In this document: in pieces, positions 4,842 through 16,816 of the stretch
How positions within the stretch are numbered: position 1 is the first letter of the stretch
How the letters are laid out: every line of letters starts with the position of its first letter
Source of the DNA: Polyangiales bacterium
GTDB lineage: Bacteria > Myxococcota_A > Polyangia > Polyangiales > Ga0077539
Assembly: GCA_044229975.1 (NCBI GenBank)
Contig: JBGARZ010000021.1
Location: forward strand, 32,001-96,000
Reading direction: 5' to 3'
DNA length: 64,000 nucleotides
Translations under genes and position numbers: made by a program
Notes under the pieces: generated by a model
Told to the model about the DNA's origin: nothing
What the model saw: only the letters and a program-made list of their open reading frames with translations
Database searches by the model: none

Positions 4842-7490
4842 GTGTGGACGCGTGTTGGACTCGGGTCGCGCCTCGGTGCGCTGGTGATGGTCGCGGGCTC
4901 GTGGGGATGTTCGTTTCCCACGAGTGAGTTTCAGATCAGGGAGGCGCGGCCCGACACGGGCGCGGTCGACACCGGGACCGACGTCGCGGTCGCGACCGAC
5001 GTGCCCACCATCGACACCCCGACCCTTGATACTCCCGGCACCGATGTCGTCGCGGCCGACAGCGTCGACGCCGGGTCACCCACCGACGTCAGCCTGAGCT
5101 GTAGCGCCGATGTGCCGTGCGCCGCGGGGGCGGCGTGCTGTGGCGGGACCTGCGTGCAGGTGCAGACCGACGCCCGCAACTGCGGCGCGTGCGGAACCGT
5201 CTGCGCCACGGGCCAGACCTGCTGCGGCGGCGCGTGCACCGAGATCGCGACCGACGCCCGCAACTGCGGCGCCTGCGGGAGCGTCTGTGACTTCGCCAAC
5301 GGCACGGCGCGGTGTGCCGCGGGCGTGTGCGCGGGCGGAACCTGCGCGGCCGGCTTCGGCGACTGCGACCTCATGGCGAGCAACGGCTGCGAGGCGAACC
5401 TCGCCGAGTCGCCGCAGCACTGCTCGATGTGCGGCCGCGCTTGTATGGCTGGGGCCAACGCCACGTCGCGCTGCGAGAGCATGGCCTGCGTGACGACGTG
5501 CGAGCCCGGCTACGACAACTGCAACGGCAGCGCGGCGGATGGGTGCGAGGCGCAGCTCTCGACGTCCAACGCCCACTGCGGGATGTGCGGTCGCACGTGC
5601 ACGGCGGGGCCCAACGCGGTGGCGGCCTGCTCCAGCGGAGCTTGCACGATCACCTGCGCCATGGGCTTCGCGGACTGCGACGGCAGCCCGGCCAACGGGT
5701 GCGAGGTGAACACCGTCACGTCGCCTGCCAACTGCGGCGCGTGCGGGCGGGTCTGCTCTTTGCCCAATGTGTCCACGGCGACCTGCGGGTCGTCGATGTG
5801 CGCGGTCGTGTCCGGGACCTCGGCTTGCTCTGCGGGCTACGGCAACTGCGACAGCGACATCGCCAACGGGTGCGAGGCCAACGTTCGGCTCGACTCCCGC
5901 AACTGCGGCGCGTGCGGCACGGTGTGCGCCGCGGGGAGCGTGTGCAGCAACGGGACGTGCCAGTCGACGTGTGCGACGGGCACCACGCTCTGCGCGGGGG
6001 CGTGTGTCGATGTGACGTCCAACGCGGCGCACTGCGGGACGTGCGGGCGGGTGTGCTCGCTCCCCAACGCGACGGCGGGCTGCGCGTCGGCGGCGTGTAC
6101 GGTGACGGCGTGCGCGGCGGGCTTTGGCAACTGCGACGCGGTGGCGGCCAACGGGTGCGAGGTCAACACCAACACCGACCCGCGCAACTGCGGCGCGTGC
6201 GGCGAGGTCTGCAACTCCACCAACGGCACGTCGACCTGCGCGGCGGGTCGGTGCAGCATCGCGTGCACGGCGGGCTTCGCGGACTGCAACCGCGACCCCG
6301 ACGACGGGTGCGAGACCAACACGCGCACGAGCGTGGCCAACTGCGGCGCGTGCGGGACGACGTGCAGCACCCCCAACGCGACGCCCGTGTGTACGAGCGG
6401 GGCCTGCGCGGTCGGTACCTGCGCGCGCGACCGCGCCGACTGCGATCGGGCGGTGGCGAACGGGTGCGAGGTCGACACGTCGAGCGACGCGCTCAACTGC
6501 GGCGCGTGCGGGACGATTTGCCGCTCGGGCACCGTGTGCTCGGACGGGCTGTGCCAGGTGGCGTGCAGCGGCCGGCTGACGGCGTGCGGCGGTCGTTGCG
6601 TCGACCTCAACTCGGACGAGGCCAACTGCGGCTCGTGCGGTCGTCGGTGCTCCACGTTGCTCACGTGCCGACTCGGGGCGTGCGTCTTCCCGCCGCCGGT
6701 CAACGACCTGTGCAGCGCGGCGACGGAGCTCAACCTGGCGGCGGGGTCGCGCATCGCGGTGACCGGAACGCTGGTGGGAGCCTCGCGCGAGGTGACGCCT
6801 TCGTGTGGCGCGCTGGGGACGGCGGATGTGTTCTATCGGCTGACGCTGACGCGGCGCGAGATCGTGTACGCCGACACCTTCGGGTCGACCGTGGACACCA
6901 AGCTGTTCTTCATGAACTCGTGCACGGCGACGACGGCCACGCAGACCACGGGCGACTCGGTGTGCGACGACGATCGCGGGCTTACCTGCACGGGCGGGAC
7001 GACCGGGGCGCAGGTGTTCACGGTGCTCAACGCCGGGACGTACTACCTCGCGGTGGGCTTGCAGACCGGGGCGACGGGGTCGTTCTCGTTGCAGCTCGAA
7101 CATCTCCCGGTGGGGAGCGGTCGGGTCGCTCCGCTCGCGCGGGGCTCGAGCACGCTGATCGGGACGACGTCGGGCACGAGCGGATACAGCGGGAGCTGCG
7201 GTGGAACGGGTCCCGAGGCGACGTTCTGGTGGGCGTCGTGCCCGGAGACGGTGGCGGGGACCTTCACGGCGGCGACGTGCCTGGGGACGACGTTTGACCC
7301 GGTGCTCAACCTCCTCAACGGGACCGGCACGGGGCAGACGTGCAGCACGACGCCGATCGGCGGGAGCTGCTCGACCAACAGCGCGGCCATCACGCCGTCG
7401 GTCGCTGGCGGTGCGGGCATCCACGCGCTCATCGTGGACGGCTTTGGCGGCGGTCTCGGCAACTACTCGGTCAATGTGACGCGACCGTGA
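4842..7490 (+). CDS. Large Cys-rich repeat lipoprotein (myxobacterial NCGACG repeats) with C-terminal beta-sandwich/PPC-like domains
   Basis: Lipobox SWGC. Seven G(F/Y)xDC...(N/D)GCE-type units plus NCGACG units. C-terminal NDLC...ADVFY...DTKL...GTYYLAV and HALIVDG modules. Confidence 0.8.
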   Translation: MWTRVGLGSRLGALVMVAGSWGCSFPTSEFQIREARPDTGAVDTGTDVAVATDVPTIDTPTLDTPGTDVVAADSVDAGSPTDVSLSCSADVPCAAGAACCGGTCVQVQTDARNCGACGTVCATGQTCCGGACTEIATDARNCGACGSVCDFANGTARCAAGVCAGGTCAAGFGDCDLMASNGCEANLAESPQHCSMCGRACMAGANATSRCESMACVTTCEPGYDNCNGSAADGCEAQLSTSNAHCGMCGRTCTAGPNAVAACSSGACTITCAMGFADCDGSPANGCEVNTVTSPANCGACGRVCSLPNVSTATCGSSMCAVVSGTSACSAGYGNCDSDIANGCEANVRLDSRNCGACGTVCAAGSVCSNGTCQSTCATGTTLCAGACVDVTSNAAHCGTCGRVCSLPNATAGCASAACTVTACAAGFGNCDAVAANGCEVNTNTDPRNCGACGEVCNSTNGTSTCAAGRCSIACTAGFADCNRDPDDGCETNTRTSVANCGACGTTCSTPNATPVCTSGACAVGTCARDRADCDRAVANGCEVDTSSDALNCGACGTICRSGTVCSDGLCQVACSGRLTACGGRCVDLNSDEANCGSCGRRCSTLLTCRLGACVFPPPVNDLCSAATELNLAAGSRIAVTGTLVGASREVTPSCGALGTADVFYRLTLTRREIVYADTFGSTVDTKLFFMNSCTATTATQTTGDSVCDDDRGLTCTGGTTGAQVFTVLNAGTYYLAVGLQTGATGSFSLQLEHLPVGSGRVAPLARGSSTLIGTTSGTSGYSGSCGGTGPEATFWWASCPETVAGTFTAATCLGTTFDPVLNLLNGTGTGQTCSTTPIGGSCSTNSAAITPSVAGGAGIHALIVDGFGGGLGNYSVNVTRP

Positions 7491-7576: not shown

Positions 7577-8062
7577 ATGGGGATGGCACATCGGCGTGGG
7601 TATGGGTCGGGTGTTGCCACGTTCGCGTTGCTGCTGGCGGGGCTCTCGCTGGGCGCCGGGTGTGGCAACTCGGGCACCGCGACGGGCGACGACGGCGGGC
7701 TCGGGGGTGACCTGGGCGCGGTCGACGGCGAGGTGGTCGACACGGGCGTGACGGTCGACGCCGGGCCCATCGATGCGGGCGTGGTCACCGACAACGGGAT
7801 GACCAACGACGCGGGTGGGGGGACGGACGTGGTCGCGGTCGACGCGTCGGACGGTGGCGGCACCGACGGCGGAGGCGGTGATGGAGGCGTGACACGGCGC
7901 GGGCGCGCGGGCGCGTCGCTGGTGTCGGCGGGGTCGCTGATGCAGTCGGCGCGGTTCCAGATGATTTCGACGCTCGGCGGACGGAGCGTTCAGCAGACGT
8001 TTTTGCAATCGCCCAACTACCGGCTGCGCGGCGGCCTGGTGGGCACGATCGGAGCGCGGTGA
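7577..8062 (+). CDS. Small lipoprotein with acidic D/G linker and C-terminal beta-rich motif; probable partner of the downstream fibre
   Basis: Lipobox GAGC. C-terminus SAGSLMQSARFQMISTLG...SPNYRLRGGLVG. Stop overlaps the next start (GTGA). The real start may be 7583. Confidence 0.7.
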   Translation: MGMAHRRGYGSGVATFALLLAGLSLGAGCGNSGTATGDDGGLGGDLGAVDGEVVDTGVTVDAGPIDAGVVTDNGMTNDAGGGTDVVAVDASDGGGTDGGGGDGGVTRRGRAGASLVSAGSLMQSARFQMISTLGGRSVQQTFLQSPNYRLRGGLVGTIGAR

Positions 8063-9654
8063 CGATGAGGACTTCGATGAACGGTGGAATCGCGGCGCGG
8101 GCGTGGCGCGGGGTGATCGGGGCGGCGGTGCTGGCGGCGCTGTGCGCGGTGCCGTCGATGGCGTCGGCGCAGGTGCCGACGACGATGATCCACCAGGGTC
8201 GGCTCCTTGACCGGGCGGGCGCTGGGGTGACCGGGTCGCAGTCGCTGGTCTATCGCATCTACGACAGCGCGACGGGGGGCACGCCCATCTGGACCGAGAC
8301 GCTGACGGTGACCCTGGATGACGGGTACTTCTCGACGCAGCTCGGGTCGACGACGCCGCTGACGCCGGCGGTGTTTGCGGGTCGCACGCGCTTCCTCGGG
8401 GTGACGGTGGGCACCGACCCGGAGATGACGCCGCGGGAGCCGATGGGGAGCGTTCCGTATGCGCTGGTGGCGGGCAACGTCACCGGGGACATCACGCCGA
8501 CGAGCATCACGGTGGGGGGGACGCAGATCGTCGACTCGATGGGCCGCTGGGTGGGCGCATCGAGCGGGCCATCGGGCCCGGCGGGTCCTGCGGGGCCGAT
8601 GGGTCCGGCGGGACCAACGGGGCCGGCGGGGCCGGCGGGAGCGACTGGACCAGCGGGGCCTGCCGGACCGGCGGGGCCTGCCGGGCCGTCGGCGGTAAAC
8701 ATCGGCTGTGAACGGGGGCTGATGCTGGGTGGCGTGTGCGTGGTCGGCATCGACAACAGCGGGCCAGGCTCTGATTGGAACCTGGCGGCGAGCACCTGCG
8801 CGGGCCTGGGCGGGGATTTGTGTAGCCCCATGCAATATGCCGTGATCCGCGACGACCAAAACGGCACGGGTCGGTACATGTTCTATACGGGCACACTGCG
8901 CCGTGCGGTTTGGTCGTCTAGCTTCTCGGACAATGACGGCGGTCGACTCTCCAGCTACCTCCAAAGCGCGGATGATCCGGTGCTCAGCAATGGGTATGGC
9001 TACGCGTGCTGCGCCAACATCACTCCCCCCGAGTTCCGCGGTCGAGCTGAGTTGGTGCGGGCCATGGGCTCACCGGACATGGGCGTCCAGGTGACCTACC
9101 TCAACAATCGAGAGGAGAGTTCTGCGCTGCTCGCAACCAACATTTGTGCGTCACTAAGGAGTGACCTCTGCTCCAAGGCACAGTACGTCACCTTGAATGA
9201 CGCTGGCCGTTTCTCGGGTGCAACGCGACGGTTGACGCGGGAGATGTCGGACAACGATAGTGGTACCTTCAACGCGATTGTCGGTTCAAACACCGCTGAC
9301 GATCCGGTCTGGAATAACGCGTGGGCATTTGCTTGCTGTGCTTCGCAGCGGCCGGTCGACAACACGTGCCCCTCCCCGGGCACGGTGGTCAACAACGTCT
9401 GCGTCTTGGATGTACACACGACCGAGGACAGTAGCTTCCTTGATGCCGCTCGAGCTTGCGCGCGCATGGGAGCCGACGTCTGCACAAACAGCCAGATGCA
9501 GAACATCCGCAACGCCGGCCGCCTGCCGGGGATCCGAGCTTGGACCAACAGTGGGGCCGACAACGACGTCCTCCGAGTAGGCGGTTTGCTTCCCAGCATG
9601 CCAGACAACCCGAACCCGCTGACCGACCGGTTCGGCTACGCCTGCTGCCTCTGA
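8059..9654 (+). CDS. Secreted collagen-like fibre protein with three C-terminal C-type-lectin/Link-like repeats
   Basis: Signal peptide (ASA|QVP), N-domain IHQGRL...RIYDSATGGTPIWTE...SVPYA, 14 Gly-X-Y triplets, three repeats ending (Y/F)ACC. Confidence 0.8.
   Translation: MTMRTSMNGGIAARAWRGVIGAAVLAALCAVPSMASAQVPTTMIHQGRLLDRAGAGVTGSQSLVYRIYDSATGGTPIWTETLTVTLDDGYFSTQLGSTTPLTPAVFAGRTRFLGVTVGTDPEMTPREPMGSVPYALVAGNVTGDITPTSITVGGTQIVDSMGRWVGASSGPSGPAGPAGPMGPAGPTGPAGPAGATGPAGPAGPAGPAGPSAVNIGCERGLMLGGVCVVGIDNSGPGSDWNLAASTCAGLGGDLCSPMQYAVIRDDQNGTGRYMFYTGTLRRAVWSSSFSDNDGGRLSSYLQSADDPVLSNGYGYACCANITPPEFRGRAELVRAMGSPDMGVQVTYLNNREESSALLATNICASLRSDLCSKAQYVTLNDAGRFSGATRRLTREMSDNDSGTFNAIVGSNTADDPVWNNAWAFACCASQRPVDNTCPSPGTVVNNVCVLDVHTTEDSSFLDAARACARMGADVCTNSQMQNIRNAGRLPGIRAWTNSGADNDVLRVGGLLPSMPDNPNPLTDRFGYACCL
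8566..8691 (+). repeat. Collagen-like (Gly-X-Y)14 coding repeat
   Basis: GPSGPAGPAGPMGPAGPTGPAGPAGATGPAGPAGPAGPAGPS. Confidence 0.95.
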
Positions 9655-9733: not shown

Positions 9734-11128
9734 ATGTCGCGAGTCTCGTTCTTGTTCTTCGTGGTCGGGTTGTCGGCTTGTGTCCCGGAGCTTCGAGTGG
9801 CGCCTCGCGACGCTGCGGAGGACCTGCCAGACAACCAACAACCGATCGACATTGTGTTTGCTGACGACCGCACTGTGACGGTAACTGACGTTCCGCCGTT
9901 GCTAGACATCACGCCGCATGACTCGTTGTTGACGAGCGATCACGTCGGTCCCGACGATGCGGGTGCCGGGATGGACGTATTGGATACTGGAATCACTCCC
10001 GATGTGGTCACTACGGTAGATGTCCCAACGGTACCGGATGTCTCGTTGGATTCCGGGCCGGTAGATGTTGGTTGTTTGGCGTGTTCGCTCCCCAACGCCG
10101 TGGCCATCTGTCGCTCTGGCGCCTGCGGAGTCGATCGGTGTAATGTCGGTTTTGGTGACTGCAATGGTGTCGCGGCCGATGGTTGCGAGGTCGCGCTCGA
10201 TTCTCCTTCCAACTGCGGCGCTTGTGGCTCGTCTTGTGGTTTAGGAGTGTGCTTGTCGCGAACCTGCATCCGACAGCGAAGTTGTCCTGTTGAGTCTGAA
10301 CGCGGTTGCGGCCTGCTCGCGGCACCCGGCGCGAGGTTCGAGATGGGAGCCACCGAAAGTAGCACCGCCGGCATACTCCGAGGCTCCGTCACCGTGTCTG
10401 CGATGGTGACTGACACATACGAGGTGACCGTACGAAGGTTCCGTCGTTTCTGGGAAGCGGGACATCCAACTTCCACAAGCGCGATTCGATATCCGAACGG
10501 TGTCGTGGTCGCGGCTGCTGTTGCTAGTGAGCCTGTGAGCTCGATTAGCGGTATGCAATGCAACTGGACGTTGAGCGAGGCGAGCCGAGAGGATCACCCG
10601 ATCAACTGCGTGGATTGGGCGACAGCGCAATCATTCTGCGCGTGGGACGGTGGACGTCTCCCAACCGAAGCTGAGTGGGAATATCTCTCCCGACATCGGG
10701 AAATCAGCGGCGTTGGCTCACCGCGCCTCTACCCTTGGGGTAACACACCGCCGATAGAGGCCATTCCCGGCTATCCTCGCGCCACTCCCTGTGAACGTGC
10801 GCAGTTCCAAGACTGCCTTGGCGACGACGGCGCCCGAACTCGTCGCGTCGGGAGTTTTCCCGGAACTGGGGGTATTTTTGACCTCGCGGGTAATGTTGTG
10901 GAGTGGGTCGCAGACAATGCTGGGAACTATGGGATCGACCGTTGCTGGACCCCTGTTCCCGTTGATCTTCACGACCCTCTCTGCATAGATGAGGCGAGAG
11001 GGCACTCTCTGCGCGGTGGCAGTTTCCGCGCGGGCGGAATCGAGACGTTGATGTGCGCCTCGCGCGACGCGGCCGCTGCTACCTCCCACGAAGACACTCT
11101 CGGCTTCCGCTGCGTCCGCTCTCCCTGA
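9734..11128 (+). CDS. FGE-sulfatase (SUMF1/EgtB/PvdO-like, C-type lectin fold) domain lipoprotein with one Cys-rich repeat
   Basis: Lipobox LSAC, FEMG, YEVT, HPINCVDW..AQSFCAW.GGRLPTEAEWE, YPWG, DLAGNVVEW, RGGSF, GFRC. Strong AAGGAGGAG ribosome-binding site. Confidence 0.9.
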   Translation: MSRVSFLFFVVGLSACVPELRVAPRDAAEDLPDNQQPIDIVFADDRTVTVTDVPPLLDITPHDSLLTSDHVGPDDAGAGMDVLDTGITPDVVTTVDVPTVPDVSLDSGPVDVGCLACSLPNAVAICRSGACGVDRCNVGFGDCNGVAADGCEVALDSPSNCGACGSSCGLGVCLSRTCIRQRSCPVESERGCGLLAAPGARFEMGATESSTAGILRGSVTVSAMVTDTYEVTVRRFRRFWEAGHPTSTSAIRYPNGVVVAAAVASEPVSSISGMQCNWTLSEASREDHPINCVDWATAQSFCAWDGGRLPTEAEWEYLSRHREISGVGSPRLYPWGNTPPIEAIPGYPRATPCERAQFQDCLGDDGARTRRVGSFPGTGGIFDLAGNVVEWVADNAGNYGIDRCWTPVPVDLHDPLCIDEARGHSLRGGSFRAGGIETLMCASRDAAAATSHEDTLGFRCVRSP

Positions 11129-11317: not shown

Positions 11318-12286
11318 GTGATCGAGACCCATCAACTCACCCGTCGCTTCGGCGCGCGCACCGCCGTCGAAGCCCTCTCGTTCACCGTCCCCAAGGGGGC
11401 CATCGTGGGCTTCCTCGGGCCCAATGGGGCCGGTAAGAGCACCACCCTCAAGATGCTCTCCGGCTTCCTGCCGCCCACCTCCGGCACCGCGCGCATCGGC
11501 GGCCTCGACGTCGTCAATGACTCCCTCGCCGCCCGCCGACTCATCGGCTACATGCCCGAGAGCGTCCCCCTCCACCCGGAGATGCGCGTCCGCGAGTACC
11601 TTCGCTTTCGCGCCGAAATCAAGGGCGTCACCCGTCAGCGCGACGCCGCCGTCGACCGCGCGCTCGAGCTCGCCGACGTCGCCGACGTCGCCGCCCGCCT
11701 CATCGGTGAGCTCTCCAAGGGCTACAAACAACGCGTCGGGCTCGCCGACGCCCTCGTCGCCAAACCCCCACTCCTCATCCTCGATGAGCCCACCGAGGGC
11801 CTCGACCCCAACCAGATCCAGCGCTTTCGCGACATGCTCAAGCGCCTCGCCGCCGAGCACACCATCCTCCTCTCCACGCACATCATGCAGGAGGTCGAGG
11901 CCGTCTGTGAGCGCGTCATCATCGTTCACAAAGGCCGCATCGCCGCGGACGGTCCGCTCGAAGAAGTCCGCGCCCAGCTCACCGGAGGCGAGCGCGACCT
12001 CGTCCTCAAGCTCCATCCCCGCGAGCACGCCGTCGCCTGGCGCGATGACCCCGCCGCCGCCGCGAAGGCCCTCGTCGAACCCGTCACCGGAGTCTCCTTC
12101 CGAGAAGCCATCATGGACGGTGAGCTCGCCAGCGTGACGGTTCGCACCGCGGACAAAGACGACTCCGTCGAGGCACTCGTCGCGCGCTGCGTGCAGGGTG
12201 GCCTCGGCGTCCGCGCGCTCTCCCCGCGCGGCGGCAGCCTCGAACGAGTCTTTCAAGCGCTCACGGGCGCAGAAGGTGACGCATGA
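11318..12286 (+). CDS. ABC transporter ATP-binding protein (GldA-like)
   Basis: GPNGAGKSTT, LSKGYKQRVGLA, LILDEPTEGLDP, STH. Confidence 0.93.
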   Translation: MIETHQLTRRFGARTAVEALSFTVPKGAIVGFLGPNGAGKSTTLKMLSGFLPPTSGTARIGGLDVVNDSLAARRLIGYMPESVPLHPEMRVREYLRFRAEIKGVTRQRDAAVDRALELADVADVAARLIGELSKGYKQRVGLADALVAKPPLLILDEPTEGLDPNQIQRFRDMLKRLAAEHTILLSTHIMQEVEAVCERVIIVHKGRIAADGPLEEVRAQLTGGERDLVLKLHPREHAVAWRDDPAAAAKALVEPVTGVSFREAIMDGELASVTVRTADKDDSVEALVARCVQGGLGVRALSPRGGSLERVFQALTGAEGDA

Positions 12287-13032
12287 GGACGGCGTGGGCG
12301 ATCTACAAGCGTGAGCTCATCGGCGTGTTCTGCTCGCCGCTGGCCTATGTCGTGATGGTGGCGTTTCTGCTCTTCAATGGAGTGCTGTTCTGGTTCTTCA
12401 TGCGAATGACGGCGGATAATCCCGCCCTCACCGGGGCGCGGTCGCCGCTCCAGATGTTCTTCGGGGCCACCATTCTCTCCATCCTGACCCTGCTGGTGTT
12501 TAGCCCCGCCACCACCATGCGCACCTTCGCCGAAGAGCGCCGCGCCCGAACCTTCGAGACCCTCTTCACCGCGCCCGTCACCGACCTCTCCGTCGTCGTC
12601 GGCAAGTACCTCGGCGCCATGACCTTCTACGCCTCGCTCTGGGCGCCCACCGCCCTCTACGCCCTCGTCGTGCGGCGCTACGGCTCCGTCGACTGGGGCG
12701 CCCTCGCGGCGGGCTACACCGGCATGCTCCTCATCGGCTCGGCCTTCGTCGCGCTCGGCATCCTCATGTCCGCCCTCGCGCGCTCGCAGGTCGTCGCGTA
12801 CATGCTGACCTTCCTCGCCATCGGGGGAGTGATGTTTTCCCTCGGACTCGGGTCGTACATCTTTCAAGAAGAGTCGACGCGGCAGTTCTTCTCCTACGTG
12901 AACCTCTGGGAGCACATGGAGCACTTCTCCGTTGGCCTCATCGACTCGCGCGCGCTCGTCTATTACGGCTCCATCGCCGTCGGCGCCCTGGCCCTCGCGA
13001 CGCGAACCCTCTCCGTGCGGAGGGAGTCATGA
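12283..13032 (+). CDS. ABC-2 type permease (GldF-like)
   Basis: F.SPLAYVV, TMRTFAEERR..TFETLFTAPV, VVGKYLG. Six hydrophobic segments. ATGA overlap. Confidence 0.9.
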   Translation: MRTAWAIYKRELIGVFCSPLAYVVMVAFLLFNGVLFWFFMRMTADNPALTGARSPLQMFFGATILSILTLLVFSPATTMRTFAEERRARTFETLFTAPVTDLSVVVGKYLGAMTFYASLWAPTALYALVVRRYGSVDWGALAAGYTGMLLIGSAFVALGILMSALARSQVVAYMLTFLAIGGVMFSLGLGSYIFQEESTRQFFSYVNLWEHMEHFSVGLIDSRALVYYGSIAVGALALATRTLSVRRES

Positions 13033-14603
13033 GCGAGCCCACGCCGACGACCGAGATCGCACCCGAGTCGACGCCCGACACCGCGCCACCCGCGTGGCTC
13101 GACCGCCTCATGAACGGCCCCGTCTGGGTGCTGCTCGTCGTCGCCCTCTTCACGCTCGTCAACTACACCGCCTCGCGCCACTACCGCCGCTGGGACTGGA
13201 CCTCCGCGCAGCGCTTCACGCTCTCCCCGCGCTCGACCCAGATCGCCCGCGGCCTGCGCGAACCCGTCGACCTCTACGTGCTGCTCGCCGGCCGTGACCC
13301 GCTCTTCGCCGAGACCCGCGAGCTCGCCGAGCGCTACGCCGCCGCGTCGTCGCGGGTGCGCCTCCACCTCATCGATCCTGACCGGCAGCGCGAGGAGTAC
13401 ATCCGCCTCGCCGACCAGCTCGGCCTCGCCCAACCCGACCGCACCGAAGACGGGCGCACCATCGCGACCGCGGGCATCGTGGTGAGTCGCGGCACCCGTC
13501 ACTGGGAGGTCGAGCGAACCCAGTTGCAGGAGCTCGGACCGGCGCCCACCAGCGACGAAGGCAACGAAGGATCGCGGCTGCTCAACGCCAAGATCACCGT
13601 CGAGCGGCGCATCTCGGAAGGTCTCCTCCAGGTCGACCGCGAGCGCGTGACGAAGCTGTGCTTCTCCACGGGCCACGCCGAGATGCCCATCGTGGCGGGT
13701 GAGCGCGCCTCGGCGGGCCTCGCCGACGACCTGCGGCACCTCAACTTCGAGGTGACCGAGTCGGAGGTGCGCGGGCAGACGGGCGTTCCGTCGGACTGCG
13801 ATGCGCTGGTGATCGCCGGCCCGCAGCGGGCGTGGTCGCGCGAGGACGCCGACGCCGTGGTGCGCTACCTGCGCGCGGGCGGCAACCTCGTGCTCTTCGT
13901 CGACCCGGTGTTGTTGGAGGGACGAGTGGTTCCGACGGGCCTGGAGGACGTGGTCGCGATGGCGGGCATGGGGTTGCCTGCGGCCATCGTGGTGGAGGGC
14001 GATCAGCAGCACCTGCTGCCCGACGCGCTCCCCGTGCACTTCCGCGCCGACACCTGGAACGAACACGACATCACCACCAACCTCCGCGGCGCCTCGGTGC
14101 TGGTGAGCATGGCGCGGCCCGTGGTGCGCGCCGAGGGGGCGACCGCCGCGACGTCGCTGGTGCTGTCGACCCCAGCGGCGTGGGGCGAGACGGGCATCGC
14201 CGACCTCATGCGCAACCACGCGCCGGCGAAGGGCGCCGACGACGTGCAGGGCCCCGTGTCGCTGGCGATGGCCGGGATGGTGGCCGACGGTCGCTCGCGC
14301 GGCGAGGGCGTGGCGTCGGGTCGCGTCGTCGTCGTGGGCAGCTCGGAGATGGTGGGCCCCGACTACTTCAACCTCCGCGTGCGCTCGTCGGTGGCCAACG
14401 CCAACCTCGCCGAGGCCGCCATCGGGTGGGCCACCGCGCGTCGTGAACTCGTGAACATCCCAGGTCGCCCCGTCGACCGCGCGGCGCTGCTCGTGAGCCC
14501 CAATGACCTCACCAAGATCGGCATCTACGTGATGTTGTTGATCCCGCTGGCGGCGGGGCTCGTCGGGCTCGCGGTCTCCCGCGCGCGAAAGAACGCCGCG
14601 TGA
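13029..14603 (+). CDS. GldG family / ABC auxiliary component
   Basis: RWDWT..QRFTLS..S, F.TGHAE, DALVIAGP, YLRAGGNLVLFVDP, GRVVVVGS, N- and C-terminal TM helices. Confidence 0.88.
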   Translation: MSEPTPTTEIAPESTPDTAPPAWLDRLMNGPVWVLLVVALFTLVNYTASRHYRRWDWTSAQRFTLSPRSTQIARGLREPVDLYVLLAGRDPLFAETRELAERYAAASSRVRLHLIDPDRQREEYIRLADQLGLAQPDRTEDGRTIATAGIVVSRGTRHWEVERTQLQELGPAPTSDEGNEGSRLLNAKITVERRISEGLLQVDRERVTKLCFSTGHAEMPIVAGERASAGLADDLRHLNFEVTESEVRGQTGVPSDCDALVIAGPQRAWSREDADAVVRYLRAGGNLVLFVDPVLLEGRVVPTGLEDVVAMAGMGLPAAIVVEGDQQHLLPDALPVHFRADTWNEHDITTNLRGASVLVSMARPVVRAEGATAATSLVLSTPAAWGETGIADLMRNHAPAKGADDVQGPVSLAMAGMVADGRSRGEGVASGRVVVVGSSEMVGPDYFNLRVRSSVANANLAEAAIGWATARRELVNIPGRPVDRAALLVSPNDLTKIGIYVMLLIPLAAGLVGLAVSRARKNAA

Positions 14604-16816
14604 AGCGCTACCGCACCCATCTCATTCTCGCCGTGATCGTCGGCGGCCTGTCGGGCTTCCTGGTCTGGGACCGTCAACGGGCCAGCACCGGCGACCTGGA
14701 GTCGCGGCACCGCAACGTGTGGCGGGCCTTCCATCGCGAGCGGGTCGACCGCATCGAGGTGGCGCACACCAGCGGTCGCTACGAGCTCACCCGCCGCGCC
14801 CAGGCATGGACCATCCGCAGCGGCAACATGGCGCGGCCCGCCGACGCGGTGGAGGTCGAGCGCGTGCTCTCGGAGATCGAAGGAGCCGAGGCCAACCGCT
14901 CGCTCGGTCCGCTCGATGGGGCGGCGCGTCGGCGCTTCGGGCTGGAGCCGGGGCACACGCAGGTGGTGGTGCACGAGGGCTCGGAGGTGACGGCGCGCTT
15001 CGCGCTCGGCGGCGCCGTGGAGCGCGAAGACCGGGTGTACGTCGCGGCCAGCGCCCAGGACGGCGGGCGCGACAGCGCGGTGACCGGCGTGGTGCTGGGC
15101 AAGGCCTTTGGTGACCTCTTCGACCGCATGGCGACGGCGTACCGCGACCGCTCGGTGGCCGACGTGGAGCCCTCGCGGCTCGATCGCATCACGCTCACCC
15201 ACGAGACGCGTCGGGTGGTGCTCGATCGCACGGGCGGCGTGTGGCGGCTCAACGAGCCCGCGTGGGGCCGAGCGTCGCGCGGGTCGGTCGAGGCGATGAC
15301 GTCGCAGCTCCGCGAGCTGCGGGCCGAGCGGGTGATCGCGGATGACCCCGACGCCGCGGCGCTGCTGCGCTACGGGCTGGAGCCGGCGGTGACGCGGGTC
15401 GAGCTGCGTCGCGGCAACATCGAGCCGGTGGTGCTGCGCCTCGGTGAGCCGTGCCCCGGGCACGACGGCGAGGTGACCGCGATGCGCGAGGGCACGGGCA
15501 CGGTGGTGTGCTTCCCGAGGACGTTCGCGGATGCGTTCAGGGTGCCGCCCGATGGGCTGCGTGATGACCGGGTGCTGGCGGCGCGCACCGACGAGGTGTC
15601 GCGCGTGCGGGTGTCGGGCGGGGCGCCGGGCGGCGGTGAGCTGGTGCTGGAGCGAACGGGCTCGCAGTGGCGCTCGACGACCGCGGGGGTGACGGTCGAC
15701 CCGGAGGCCATCGAGTCGTGGCTGACGACGCTGCACGACCTCGCGTCGGCGCAGCGCATCGACGGCGACGTGCGGGCGGCGCACGGCATCGGGGCGACGT
15801 CGCGCACCATCACGGTCGAGCGCGAGGGCGTCGAAGGCAGCGAGCGCATCGTGATCGGGACGCCCGACGCGACGGGCTTCTACGTGAGCCGCGACGACGA
15901 GAGCGTGGTGCTGCGCTTCGCGGCGTCGGCGGCGGAGACGCTGCTCGTGGACGCGCTGCGGTTTCGCCCGCGGGCGCTGGTGCACGACACGGCCGACGAC
16001 CTGCGCGCCGTGCTGGTGGACGTCGGGGCGATGCACGAGGAGATCGTTCGGGGGGAGGAGGGCTTCCGCCTGGCGCGGCCGCAGACGGGGAGGGCCGACC
16101 CGGCGCTGGTGACCGACCTCGGTCGGCAGATCGCGACGCTGGAGGTGGAGCGCTGGGTCTCGGTGACGCCGCGGCCCGAGCACGGGCTGACGACGCCGCG
16201 GGCGAGGGTGGTGGCGCGCTACGAGGGGCGCGGTCCGGCGAGCGACGGCGGGGTCGACGCGTCGGTGGCCGCGGTGCGCACCTACGGGTTGAGCATCGGC
16301 GCCGAGGCGACGGGCGGCGGGAGCTACGCGACGCTCGACGGGGGCCCAGGGGTCTTCGTGATGCCGCGGGCGCTGGTGGAGCTGGTGACGCAGCCGCACC
16401 TCGACCACGCGGCGACCCTCATCGCGCGCGACGGGTTGCAGCGGCTGGTGCTGCGCTTCACCGGGCCTGCGCGGGTCGTGACGGTGGTGCGCGACGGCGA
16501 GCGCTGGCGTACCGAGAGCGGGGCGCCGGCGGACACGGCGCGGGTCGACGCGCTGCTGGAGACGCTGGGCGCGATGGGGTCGCCGCGGGCCTTCGCGTAC
16601 GGGCCACCGGGCCCGGAGATGGGCTTCGTGTTTCCCACGGTGGTGATCGAGGCGACGTACGGCGGCGACGCGGGCGCGCGCTCGGTGCGCCAGATGGTCG
16701 GAGCGCGGTACGGGAGCGGCGAGGGCGCGGGGTTCTACGTGCGGCGCGACGGGCTCGACGCGACGCTGTCGTGGCCCGAGGCGGTGGTGGACTCGCTGCG
16801 GGGGTTCAGTCCGTAG
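14600..16816 (+). CDS. Multi-repeat DUF4340-like protein
   Basis: N-terminal anchor and repeated W...ADxxxV..L..L...(Y/F/H)GL..P units. Occupies the usual fourth position in gldAFG-like operons. Confidence 0.8.
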   Translation: MKRYRTHLILAVIVGGLSGFLVWDRQRASTGDLESRHRNVWRAFHRERVDRIEVAHTSGRYELTRRAQAWTIRSGNMARPADAVEVERVLSEIEGAEANRSLGPLDGAARRRFGLEPGHTQVVVHEGSEVTARFALGGAVEREDRVYVAASAQDGGRDSAVTGVVLGKAFGDLFDRMATAYRDRSVADVEPSRLDRITLTHETRRVVLDRTGGVWRLNEPAWGRASRGSVEAMTSQLRELRAERVIADDPDAAALLRYGLEPAVTRVELRRGNIEPVVLRLGEPCPGHDGEVTAMREGTGTVVCFPRTFADAFRVPPDGLRDDRVLAARTDEVSRVRVSGGAPGGGELVLERTGSQWRSTTAGVTVDPEAIESWLTTLHDLASAQRIDGDVRAAHGIGATSRTITVEREGVEGSERIVIGTPDATGFYVSRDDESVVLRFAASAAETLLVDALRFRPRALVHDTADDLRAVLVDVGAMHEEIVRGEEGFRLARPQTGRADPALVTDLGRQIATLEVERWVSVTPRPEHGLTTPRARVVARYEGRGPASDGGVDASVAAVRTYGLSIGAEATGGGSYATLDGGPGVFVMPRALVELVTQPHLDHAATLIARDGLQRLVLRFTGPARVVTVVRDGERWRTESGAPADTARVDALLETLGAMGSPRAFAYGPPGPEMGFVFPTVVIEATYGGDAGARSVRQMVGARYGSGEGAGFYVRRDGLDATLSWPEAVVDSLRGFSP

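Follow-up and report, generated by a model that had tools for sequence, protein, structure and literature searches.

The window analysed here, a stretch of 64,000 nucleotides in its full length, contains a gene that encodes a MAT-like mosaic fibre, which is likely a trimeric surface adhesin. There is a moderate probability that the base of this fibre is gripped by a lipoprotein encoded by the upstream gene. The locus has the following features:

7577..8062, + strand: partner lipoprotein, 161 aa, with a lipobox containing Cys29 (from the sequence; the layout is common to relatives)
7889..8059, + strand: conserved C-terminal motif of the partner, about 55 aa, a candidate fibre-binding module (from conservation and position)
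8059..9654, + strand: fibre gene, 531 aa (ORF translation)
8059..8169, + strand: signal peptide of the fibre, residues 1-37 (from the sequence and the starts of homologues)
8170..8478, + strand: MAT-like base domain, residues 38-140, a predicted beta-sandwich (NF053851 match and model)
8479..8565, + strand: conserved beta-hairpin neck, residues 141-169 (two family alignments; hairpin in the model)
8566..8691, + strand: collagen stalk of 14 Gly-X-Y triplets, residues 170-211 (sequence and Pfam Collagen)
8707..9012, + strand: head repeat 1, residues 217-318, predicted C-type-lectin fold
9085..9339, + strand: head repeat 2, residues 343-427, predicted C-type-lectin fold
9367..9648, + strand: head repeat 3, residues 437-530, predicted C-type-lectin fold and best match to the Bd2740 tip

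The stalk and the triple head

By eye, the signal peptide of the fibre is of the signal-peptidase-I type, with Ala-Ser-Ala before Gln38, and no lipobox was seen when its sequence was inspected. The true start of the fibre may lie a few codons inside the annotated start. The count of 14 Gly-X-Y triplets given in the initial annotation was found to be exact; the triplets are mostly Gly-Pro-Ala and extend without interruption over residues 170-211. The Pfam Collagen model matched the stalk with an E-value of 8.9e-6 and 25.8 bits, slightly below the cut-off of 27.2. With the rise of collagen being 0.29 nm per residue, the stalk would be about 12 nm long. It is solely from these triplets that we infer a homotrimeric fibre. 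No Cys is present in residues 30 to 216, and the first Cys of the head stands five residues from the collagen, with no helix modelled in between. A scan for promoters and terminators yielded results at chance level only, and no RNA sample holding the locus was present among the listed sequencing runs.

Three tandem repeats had been claimed for the head, and all three are present. They comprise about 100 aa each, and their Cys-Cys ends are located at 317, 426, and 529. Repeats 2 and 3 share 39% and 38% identity with repeat 1, respectively, and the positions of the consensus proposed at the outset are invariant across all three. A plain BLASTP self-comparison of the fibre revealed the diagonal only. 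HMMs for single repeat positions scored the other two repeats with 54-76 bits, while the maximum for 900 shuffles was 15.6 bits, and therefore the repeats are not due to chance.

A search with residues 212-531 identified 69 proteins among 3,573 candidates, and a genome scan for the head yielded 47 loci from 67 pattern matches, mostly in Myxococcota. Outside this phylum, head-bearing loci were found in Marinicella, Arenicella, Desulfocapsa, and one Bdellovibrionales bin. The closest relatives of the head were labelled Myxococcaceae or Deltaproteobacteria, a kinship that assigns the host to Myxococcota. The repeat was present in 123 of 201 collected proteins, with three copies in 106 cases, two copies in 9, and one copy in 8, and most of the latter resembled fragments. 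A single, more distant lectin-fold repeat is carried by several complete fibres that otherwise share the base and the collagen (P0116, P0139, and P0173; also L082 and L087). In a quick tree search with 90 repeats from 30 loci and only 96 columns, the repeats grouped by position, with 4 label changes compared with 43 for shuffles. Therefore, the triplication is old and fixed, and position-specific repeats have been retained across phyla. Among four close relatives, the identity of the head was 78-88%, and that of repeat 3 was 86-88%.

Exclusion of 18 fragments resulted in a set of 88 full-length triple-head proteins, 26 of which contain collagen and 62 of which do not. In the triple-head fibres P0020-P0025, a P-proprotein domain (PF01483) is located within the stalk. 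The fibre genes at L019:5365-6964 and L048:5190-7020 are frameshifted, as are the neighbours of the former, probably due to sequencing errors. Two further possibilities were considered and rejected. A recent swap of the head could have been indicated by a drop of GC3 from 0.93 to 0.75, yet close relatives share the head together with a milder drop, and the swap remains unproven. The head could also have been the target of a DGR, as in Mtd; no template copy was found, within the genome, which is 93% complete, the head DNA has no match other than itself, and a hypervariable tip is contradicted by the high identity of repeat 3 among the relatives.

A model of the head that included all three repeats (66 sequences) reached a pLDDT of 93.9 and a pTM of 0.92. 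It contains a strand-helix-helix-loop-strand pattern three times over, and the Cys residues of helix 1 and of the last strand are invariant columns in 90 repeats. The high pTM suggests that the three repeats of a chain form one rigid unit. The top structural match among 48,161 chains was Bd2740 (8OKS), which aligned with repeat 3 over 89 residues with a Z-score of 9.7 and an rmsd of 2.8 A. The next match had a Z-score of 7.7; 62 chains reached a Z-score of at least 5, and all 50 that were listed have C-type-lectin or Link folds, with animal CTLDs populating the list below Bd2740. In a search with a profile of the 90 repeats, 8OKS was also the best single-domain sequence match (E 3.4e-4), and only the multi-CTLD receptor DEC-205 ranked higher, via summed weak domains. 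Foldseek detected no match to the head at E<=0.001 in the PDB or in viral models, its weak rows were all CTLD/Link, and single-sequence PDB searches yielded nothing useful. Taken together, the C-type-lectin/Link-like fold that had been proposed is supported by the head model and by the structural matches, with no other fold among those listed, and the nearest relative is bacterial, because Bd2740 leads both by structure and by profile.

The repeat family had been suspected to be unnamed, and this was supported in that neither Pfam nor NCBIfam contains a family for the head. Matches to Xlink (PF00193) were weak and confined to 11 of 90 repeats (best E 0.0073). An atlas search, which provided leads only, linked repeat 3 to unnamed and DUF7495 clusters with a score of 0.90. 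No published description of the triple head or of the partner lipoprotein was found in the literature searched, which covered few subscription papers. On its predicted fold, the triple head represents a bacterial family of C-type-lectin folds that has no name and in which the threefold repetition is fixed.

A base domain related to the MAT fibres

The initial annotation had passed over residues 38-169, the very region that contains the most informative domain, the MAT-related base. The model NF053851 (Bdello_MAT_N) matched residues 38-140 with an E-value of 4.7e-5 and 23.2 bits, compared with a curated cut-off of 60 bits. It was matched by 90 of 92 aligned relatives (E<=0.001, best E 1.2e-11), the best relative scanned reached 40.8 bits, and a match above the cut-off was found in none of three genomes tried. 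Judged from these matches, the base is a member of the wider MAT superfamily, outside the Bdellovibrio subfamily model. The base domain was modelled as a beta-sandwich with a pLDDT of 87.5. Its structural matches were generic Ig/FnIII-like only (best Z 7.1, none at 8), and Foldseek retrieved weak rows of phage beta-sandwiches at E>=0.001.

Of 251 genomes sampled from the phylum, 156 contain the base domain, frequently in multiple copies. The source genome contains only three base-domain genes, compared with 21 MATs in Bdellovibrio, which speaks against the MAT reading. Two short paralogues (L002 and L003; G000:C36:423224-426175, - strand) have a diverged base and no collagen. They are preceded by a small gene, the tail of which resembles the partner motif by eye, while the HMM misses it. 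When 81 base-domain proteins were scanned, most contained collagen, and the named tips were ILEI, LamG, and CTHRC1-C; single-repeat heads and further types also occur on the same base. Base, stalk, and tip are thus exchangeable, and therefore the fibre family possesses the trait that defines MATs.

The MAT fibres of Bdellovibrio bacteriovorus (non-S74 subgroup) likewise have a related beta-rich base right after the signal peptide, followed by a variable stalk and a tip with a C-type-lectin fold, and among them Bd2740 is the best counterpart by structure and sequence. Bd2740 has a single tip domain per chain, whereas the fibre has three in tandem. The fibre further differs by its collagen stalk, by additional invariant Cys and Asp residues, and by a base that stays under the cut-off of the Bdellovibrio model. 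There is one triple-head fibre per genome, compared with the 21 MATs that are reported for Bdellovibrio in the accessible sections of the MAT paper (Caulton et al. 2024, PMC10769870). A further difference is the dedicated upstream partner gene, which is not mentioned in those sections of the paper (PMC10769870). Its Table S3 lists a Myxococcales MAT with a beta-helix tip and a collagen-like MAT of Saprospiraceae, and therefore a myxobacterial or a collagen-like MAT is not new alone (PMC10769870). In their Discussion, the authors propose a surface element, awaiting identification, as the binding partner of the MAT base (PMC10769870).

The partner lipoprotein and its pairing with the base

The partner consists of a lipobox, an acidic low-complexity linker rich in Gly, Asp, and Thr, and the conserved C-terminal motif, in this order, and its stop codon overlaps the first start codon of the fibre gene (GTGA). 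No Pfam or NCBIfam family matched the partner or the myxobacterial motif, and the atlas search gave a single lead, an unnamed cluster with a score of 0.87 to the motif. In four close relatives, the motif is 79-88% identical, and the linker is 49-52% identical.

The pairing of motif and base was quantified with searches that used the motif only. Metagenome contigs yielded 48 loci, and 10 matches were found in 9 of 251 genomes. In 57 of 61 matches, a base-domain gene starts at most 350 nt downstream, where the counts include the source locus and near-duplicates; the other four were one tandem copy, one match without room, and two without a base gene. With an iterated profile, 7,951 ORF tails from 170 loci were searched, and 107 of 117 matches were base-adjacent, corresponding to 83 of 93 distinct sequences. 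Six of the 93 were not base-adjacent, namely four extra copies 0.8-2.4 kb upstream of a base gene and two without one. Motif-base pairs occur in Myxococcota, in Gammaproteobacteria, and in one genome labelled Bdellovibrionales (L110), and 79 pairs represent at least 36 motif clusters at 60% identity. Because most of the paired fibres bear other tips, the occurrence of the motif is tied to the base rather than to the head. Viewed from the base, a motif gene lies directly upstream of 13 of 25 base genes in Myxococcota, 17 of 32 in gammaproteobacterial relatives, and 16 of 33 in head-bearing loci; some of the base genes without an adjacent motif belong to tandem fibre arrays or are diverged look-alikes. 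All these pairing counts overstate independence, because the loci are related and were fetched via one of the parts. Covariation of motif and base in the 79 pairs (effective number 43) reached a top z of 5.8, which was equalled in 23 of 50 lineage-preserving shuffles. The correlation between partner and base distances (rho 0.77) reflects shared descent only and was discarded as support for pairing. Some loci contain tandem partner-fibre-partner-fibre cassettes or doubled partner genes (L065, L069, L012, L016, and L068).

The distribution of lipid anchors was then compared with that of the base. Among the 88 full-length triple-head proteins, a lipobox was present in 1 of 60 proteins with a base compared with 17 of 28 without a base, as counted with a simple pattern in related sequences. 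Therefore, the base behaves as if it replaced a lipid anchor. Neither feature was found in 11 of the 28 base-less proteins, such that 77 of 88 have a base domain or a lipobox. The gammaproteobacterial partners have a plain signal peptide, no lipobox, and a conserved acidic-aromatic C-terminal tail, which is similar to Asp-x-Ile-Phe-x-x-Gly-Phe-Glu (L024, L026, and L144-L170). The same tail is found on some unrelated secreted proteins (L148 and L152), and it is matched by no NCBIfam model. It resembles a sorting or anchoring signal of an undescribed kind.

The fibre itself is devoid of an anchor, the gene pairing is tight, and the partner is a candidate for the tether. We regard it as reasonably probable that it tethers the fibre directly. 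The domain order, the homology of base and tip to parts of MATs, the exchange of stalks and tips on the base, and the pairing of the genes have been demonstrated here, and the steps that follow go beyond them. In the mechanism that we propose, the fibre and the partner would be exported by Sec, and the partner would be lipidated at Cys29 and reach outward via its disordered linker. Its C-terminal motif would bind the base of the fibre, which lacks an anchor. Neck and collagen would join three chains, with the neck presumably nucleating the trimer. The three repeats of each chain would pack as one rigid head, and nine lectin-fold domains would be displayed about 12 nm beyond the base. These heads would bind the surface of other cells or a substrate, possibly via the invariant Asp cluster. 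A tentative extension, for which we see somewhat less than an even chance, generalizes both parts of this mechanism: the motif may be the missing cell-surface dock of MAT-type fibres across several phyla, equipped in myxobacteria with a lipid anchor and in Gammaproteobacteria with a C-terminal tail, and the head may mimic the Bd2740 homotrimer within a single chain, such that the collagen versions would be trimers of pseudo-trimers with nine binding domains and a non-canonical acidic site, perhaps for Ca2+.

The main rival reading is also unlikely, namely that, with the same fibre, the partner is instead a folding or export helper or a pilin-like subunit and that the fibre is held otherwise or released. 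Such a role would fit the gammaproteobacterial partners with their plain signal peptides and missing lipoboxes, and also the half of the base-domain genes that have no adjacent partner. In addition, 2 of 9 gammaproteobacterial partners weakly matched the N-terminal part of PamT, with E-values of 1.7e-6 and 0.015 and 27.6 bits compared with a cut-off of 240; this is a lead only. PamT is a CPR pilus protein and, according to the prediction of its authors, a donor-strand acceptor (PMC13278184). However, the motif is surrounded by varied devices that resemble attachments, i.e. a lipobox and a long linker in Myxococcota and the tail in Gammaproteobacteria, and the mutual exclusion of lipobox and base suits anchoring better than chaperoning. 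Direct tethering by the partner remains the preferred reading.

The neighbouring genes were also inspected. Directly after the fibre gene, a gene at 9734-11128 (+) encodes a lipoprotein-like protein with an FGE-sulfatase domain (PF03781, E 2.9e-32). Its GC3 is 0.62, compared with about 0.9 for its neighbours, and the protein is only 47-59% identical among close relatives whose heads are 78-88% identical. The predicted product is a second, faster-changing lectin-fold surface protein. Upstream of the partner, the gene at 4842-7490 (+) encodes an MXAN_6577-like cysteine-rich lipoprotein of 882 aa (NF041328 above cut-off), which is kept in 4 of 5 close relatives. The genes at 11318-16816 (+) for an ABC transporter, a permease, an auxiliary component, and a DUF4340 protein are syntenic only in the five closest relatives, and the synteny comparison gave no sign of a link with the fibre.

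Comparison with collectins and function of the head

The protein had initially been filed as a collectin-like protein. Animal collectins (MBL, SP-A, and SP-D) likewise have a collagen stalk ahead of a C-type-lectin fold, and the head of the fibre matched those of SP-A and SP-D with Z-scores of 6.2 and 6.0. The hallmarks of collectins are a Cys-rich N-terminus, a coiled-coil neck, and an EPN/WND sugar site. Unlike collectins, the fibre has no Cys-rich N-terminal oligomerisation segment, no alpha-helical coiled-coil neck, and no EPN/QPD or WND motif, and it has three heads per chain instead of a single CRD as well as a bacterial base. The filing is not supported: the nearest solved relative is Bd2740, the base is MAT-like, the hallmarks are missing, and collagen is optional in the family (26 of 88). 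Convergence is the best reading of the resemblance to collectins.

Link modules and tandem CTLD receptors (aggrecan G1, TSG-6, and DEC-205) have the short-form fold in common with the head. Aggrecan G1 matched with a Z-score of 7.3 and as the top Foldseek row (E 0.022), with all Link-module matches below family thresholds. The structural scores of the Link modules (Z 7.3 and 6.3) are both below that of Bd2740, and no sign of hyaluronan binding by the head emerged from this comparison. The bacterial collagen-like proteins Scl1/Scl2, Lcl, and BclA are likewise surface proteins with a Gly-X-Y stalk and a globular tip. The NCBIfam matches of the fibre to such adhesins involve the collagen only (21-25 bits compared with cut-offs of 325-500), and, unlike these proteins, the fibre has no LPXTG motif or other anchor of its own.

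The conserved acidic residues of the head raised the question of a calcium site. Of the 106 copies of each repeat, 96-97 retain Asp-Asn-Asp, and 87-98 retain a second Asp motif. Two of these Asp columns are at least 90% conserved in 90 repeats, and one is invariant. Motifs of the WND/WD-D type occur in at most 2 of 106 copies per repeat, and EPN or QPD was found in 31 of 106 third repeats only, near the C-terminus, and is absent from the fibre studied here. A true collectin mimic, i.e. a Ca2+-dependent multivalent sugar sensor that uses the Asp-Asn-Asp and Asp-Asp-Pro motifs as its site, would be in line with the high conservation of these motifs over the repeats and with the parallel in architecture. 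We consider it improbable, however, because canonical WND/EPN sites are missing here and infrequent elsewhere in the family, 62 of 88 relatives lack collagen, and Bd2740, which has a Trp...Asp-Asn stretch in common with the head repeats, is reported to lack a Ca-binding motif and not to bind calcium (PMC10769870). A non-canonical acidic site, perhaps for Ca2+, is nevertheless a possible candidate in the head, because the triple head has more acidic residues than Bd2740.

With regard to function, an adhesin-type fibre is highly probable. A non-adhesin alternative, in which the protein is released, belongs to the matrix, or acts as a decoy for phages or grazers and its head binds a protein or nothing specific, could invoke protein-binding C-type-lectin folds such as that of phage Mtd and the small predation phenotype of MAT deletions (PMC10769870), but it is very improbable given the 78-88% conservation of the head in four close relatives, the position-specific repeats across phyla, a head that is always stalk-mounted, and an anchor-like base or a lipobox in 77 of 88 proteins. 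Prey recognition by the adhesin is not established, because the head is also present in Marinicella, Arenicella, and Desulfocapsa, none of which is known as a predator.

In summary, the fibre illustrates that a collectin-like layout arises in bacteria through module shuffling, and a structure of the head would show a new multivalent design and might reveal a new ligand site. The 2024 MAT paper leaves open what holds the fibres on the cell (PMC10769870). The 55-residue motif and the 100-residue base domain represent a small, testable pair for this question, and an answer would apply widely, because the base domain is present in 156 of 251 sampled genomes.
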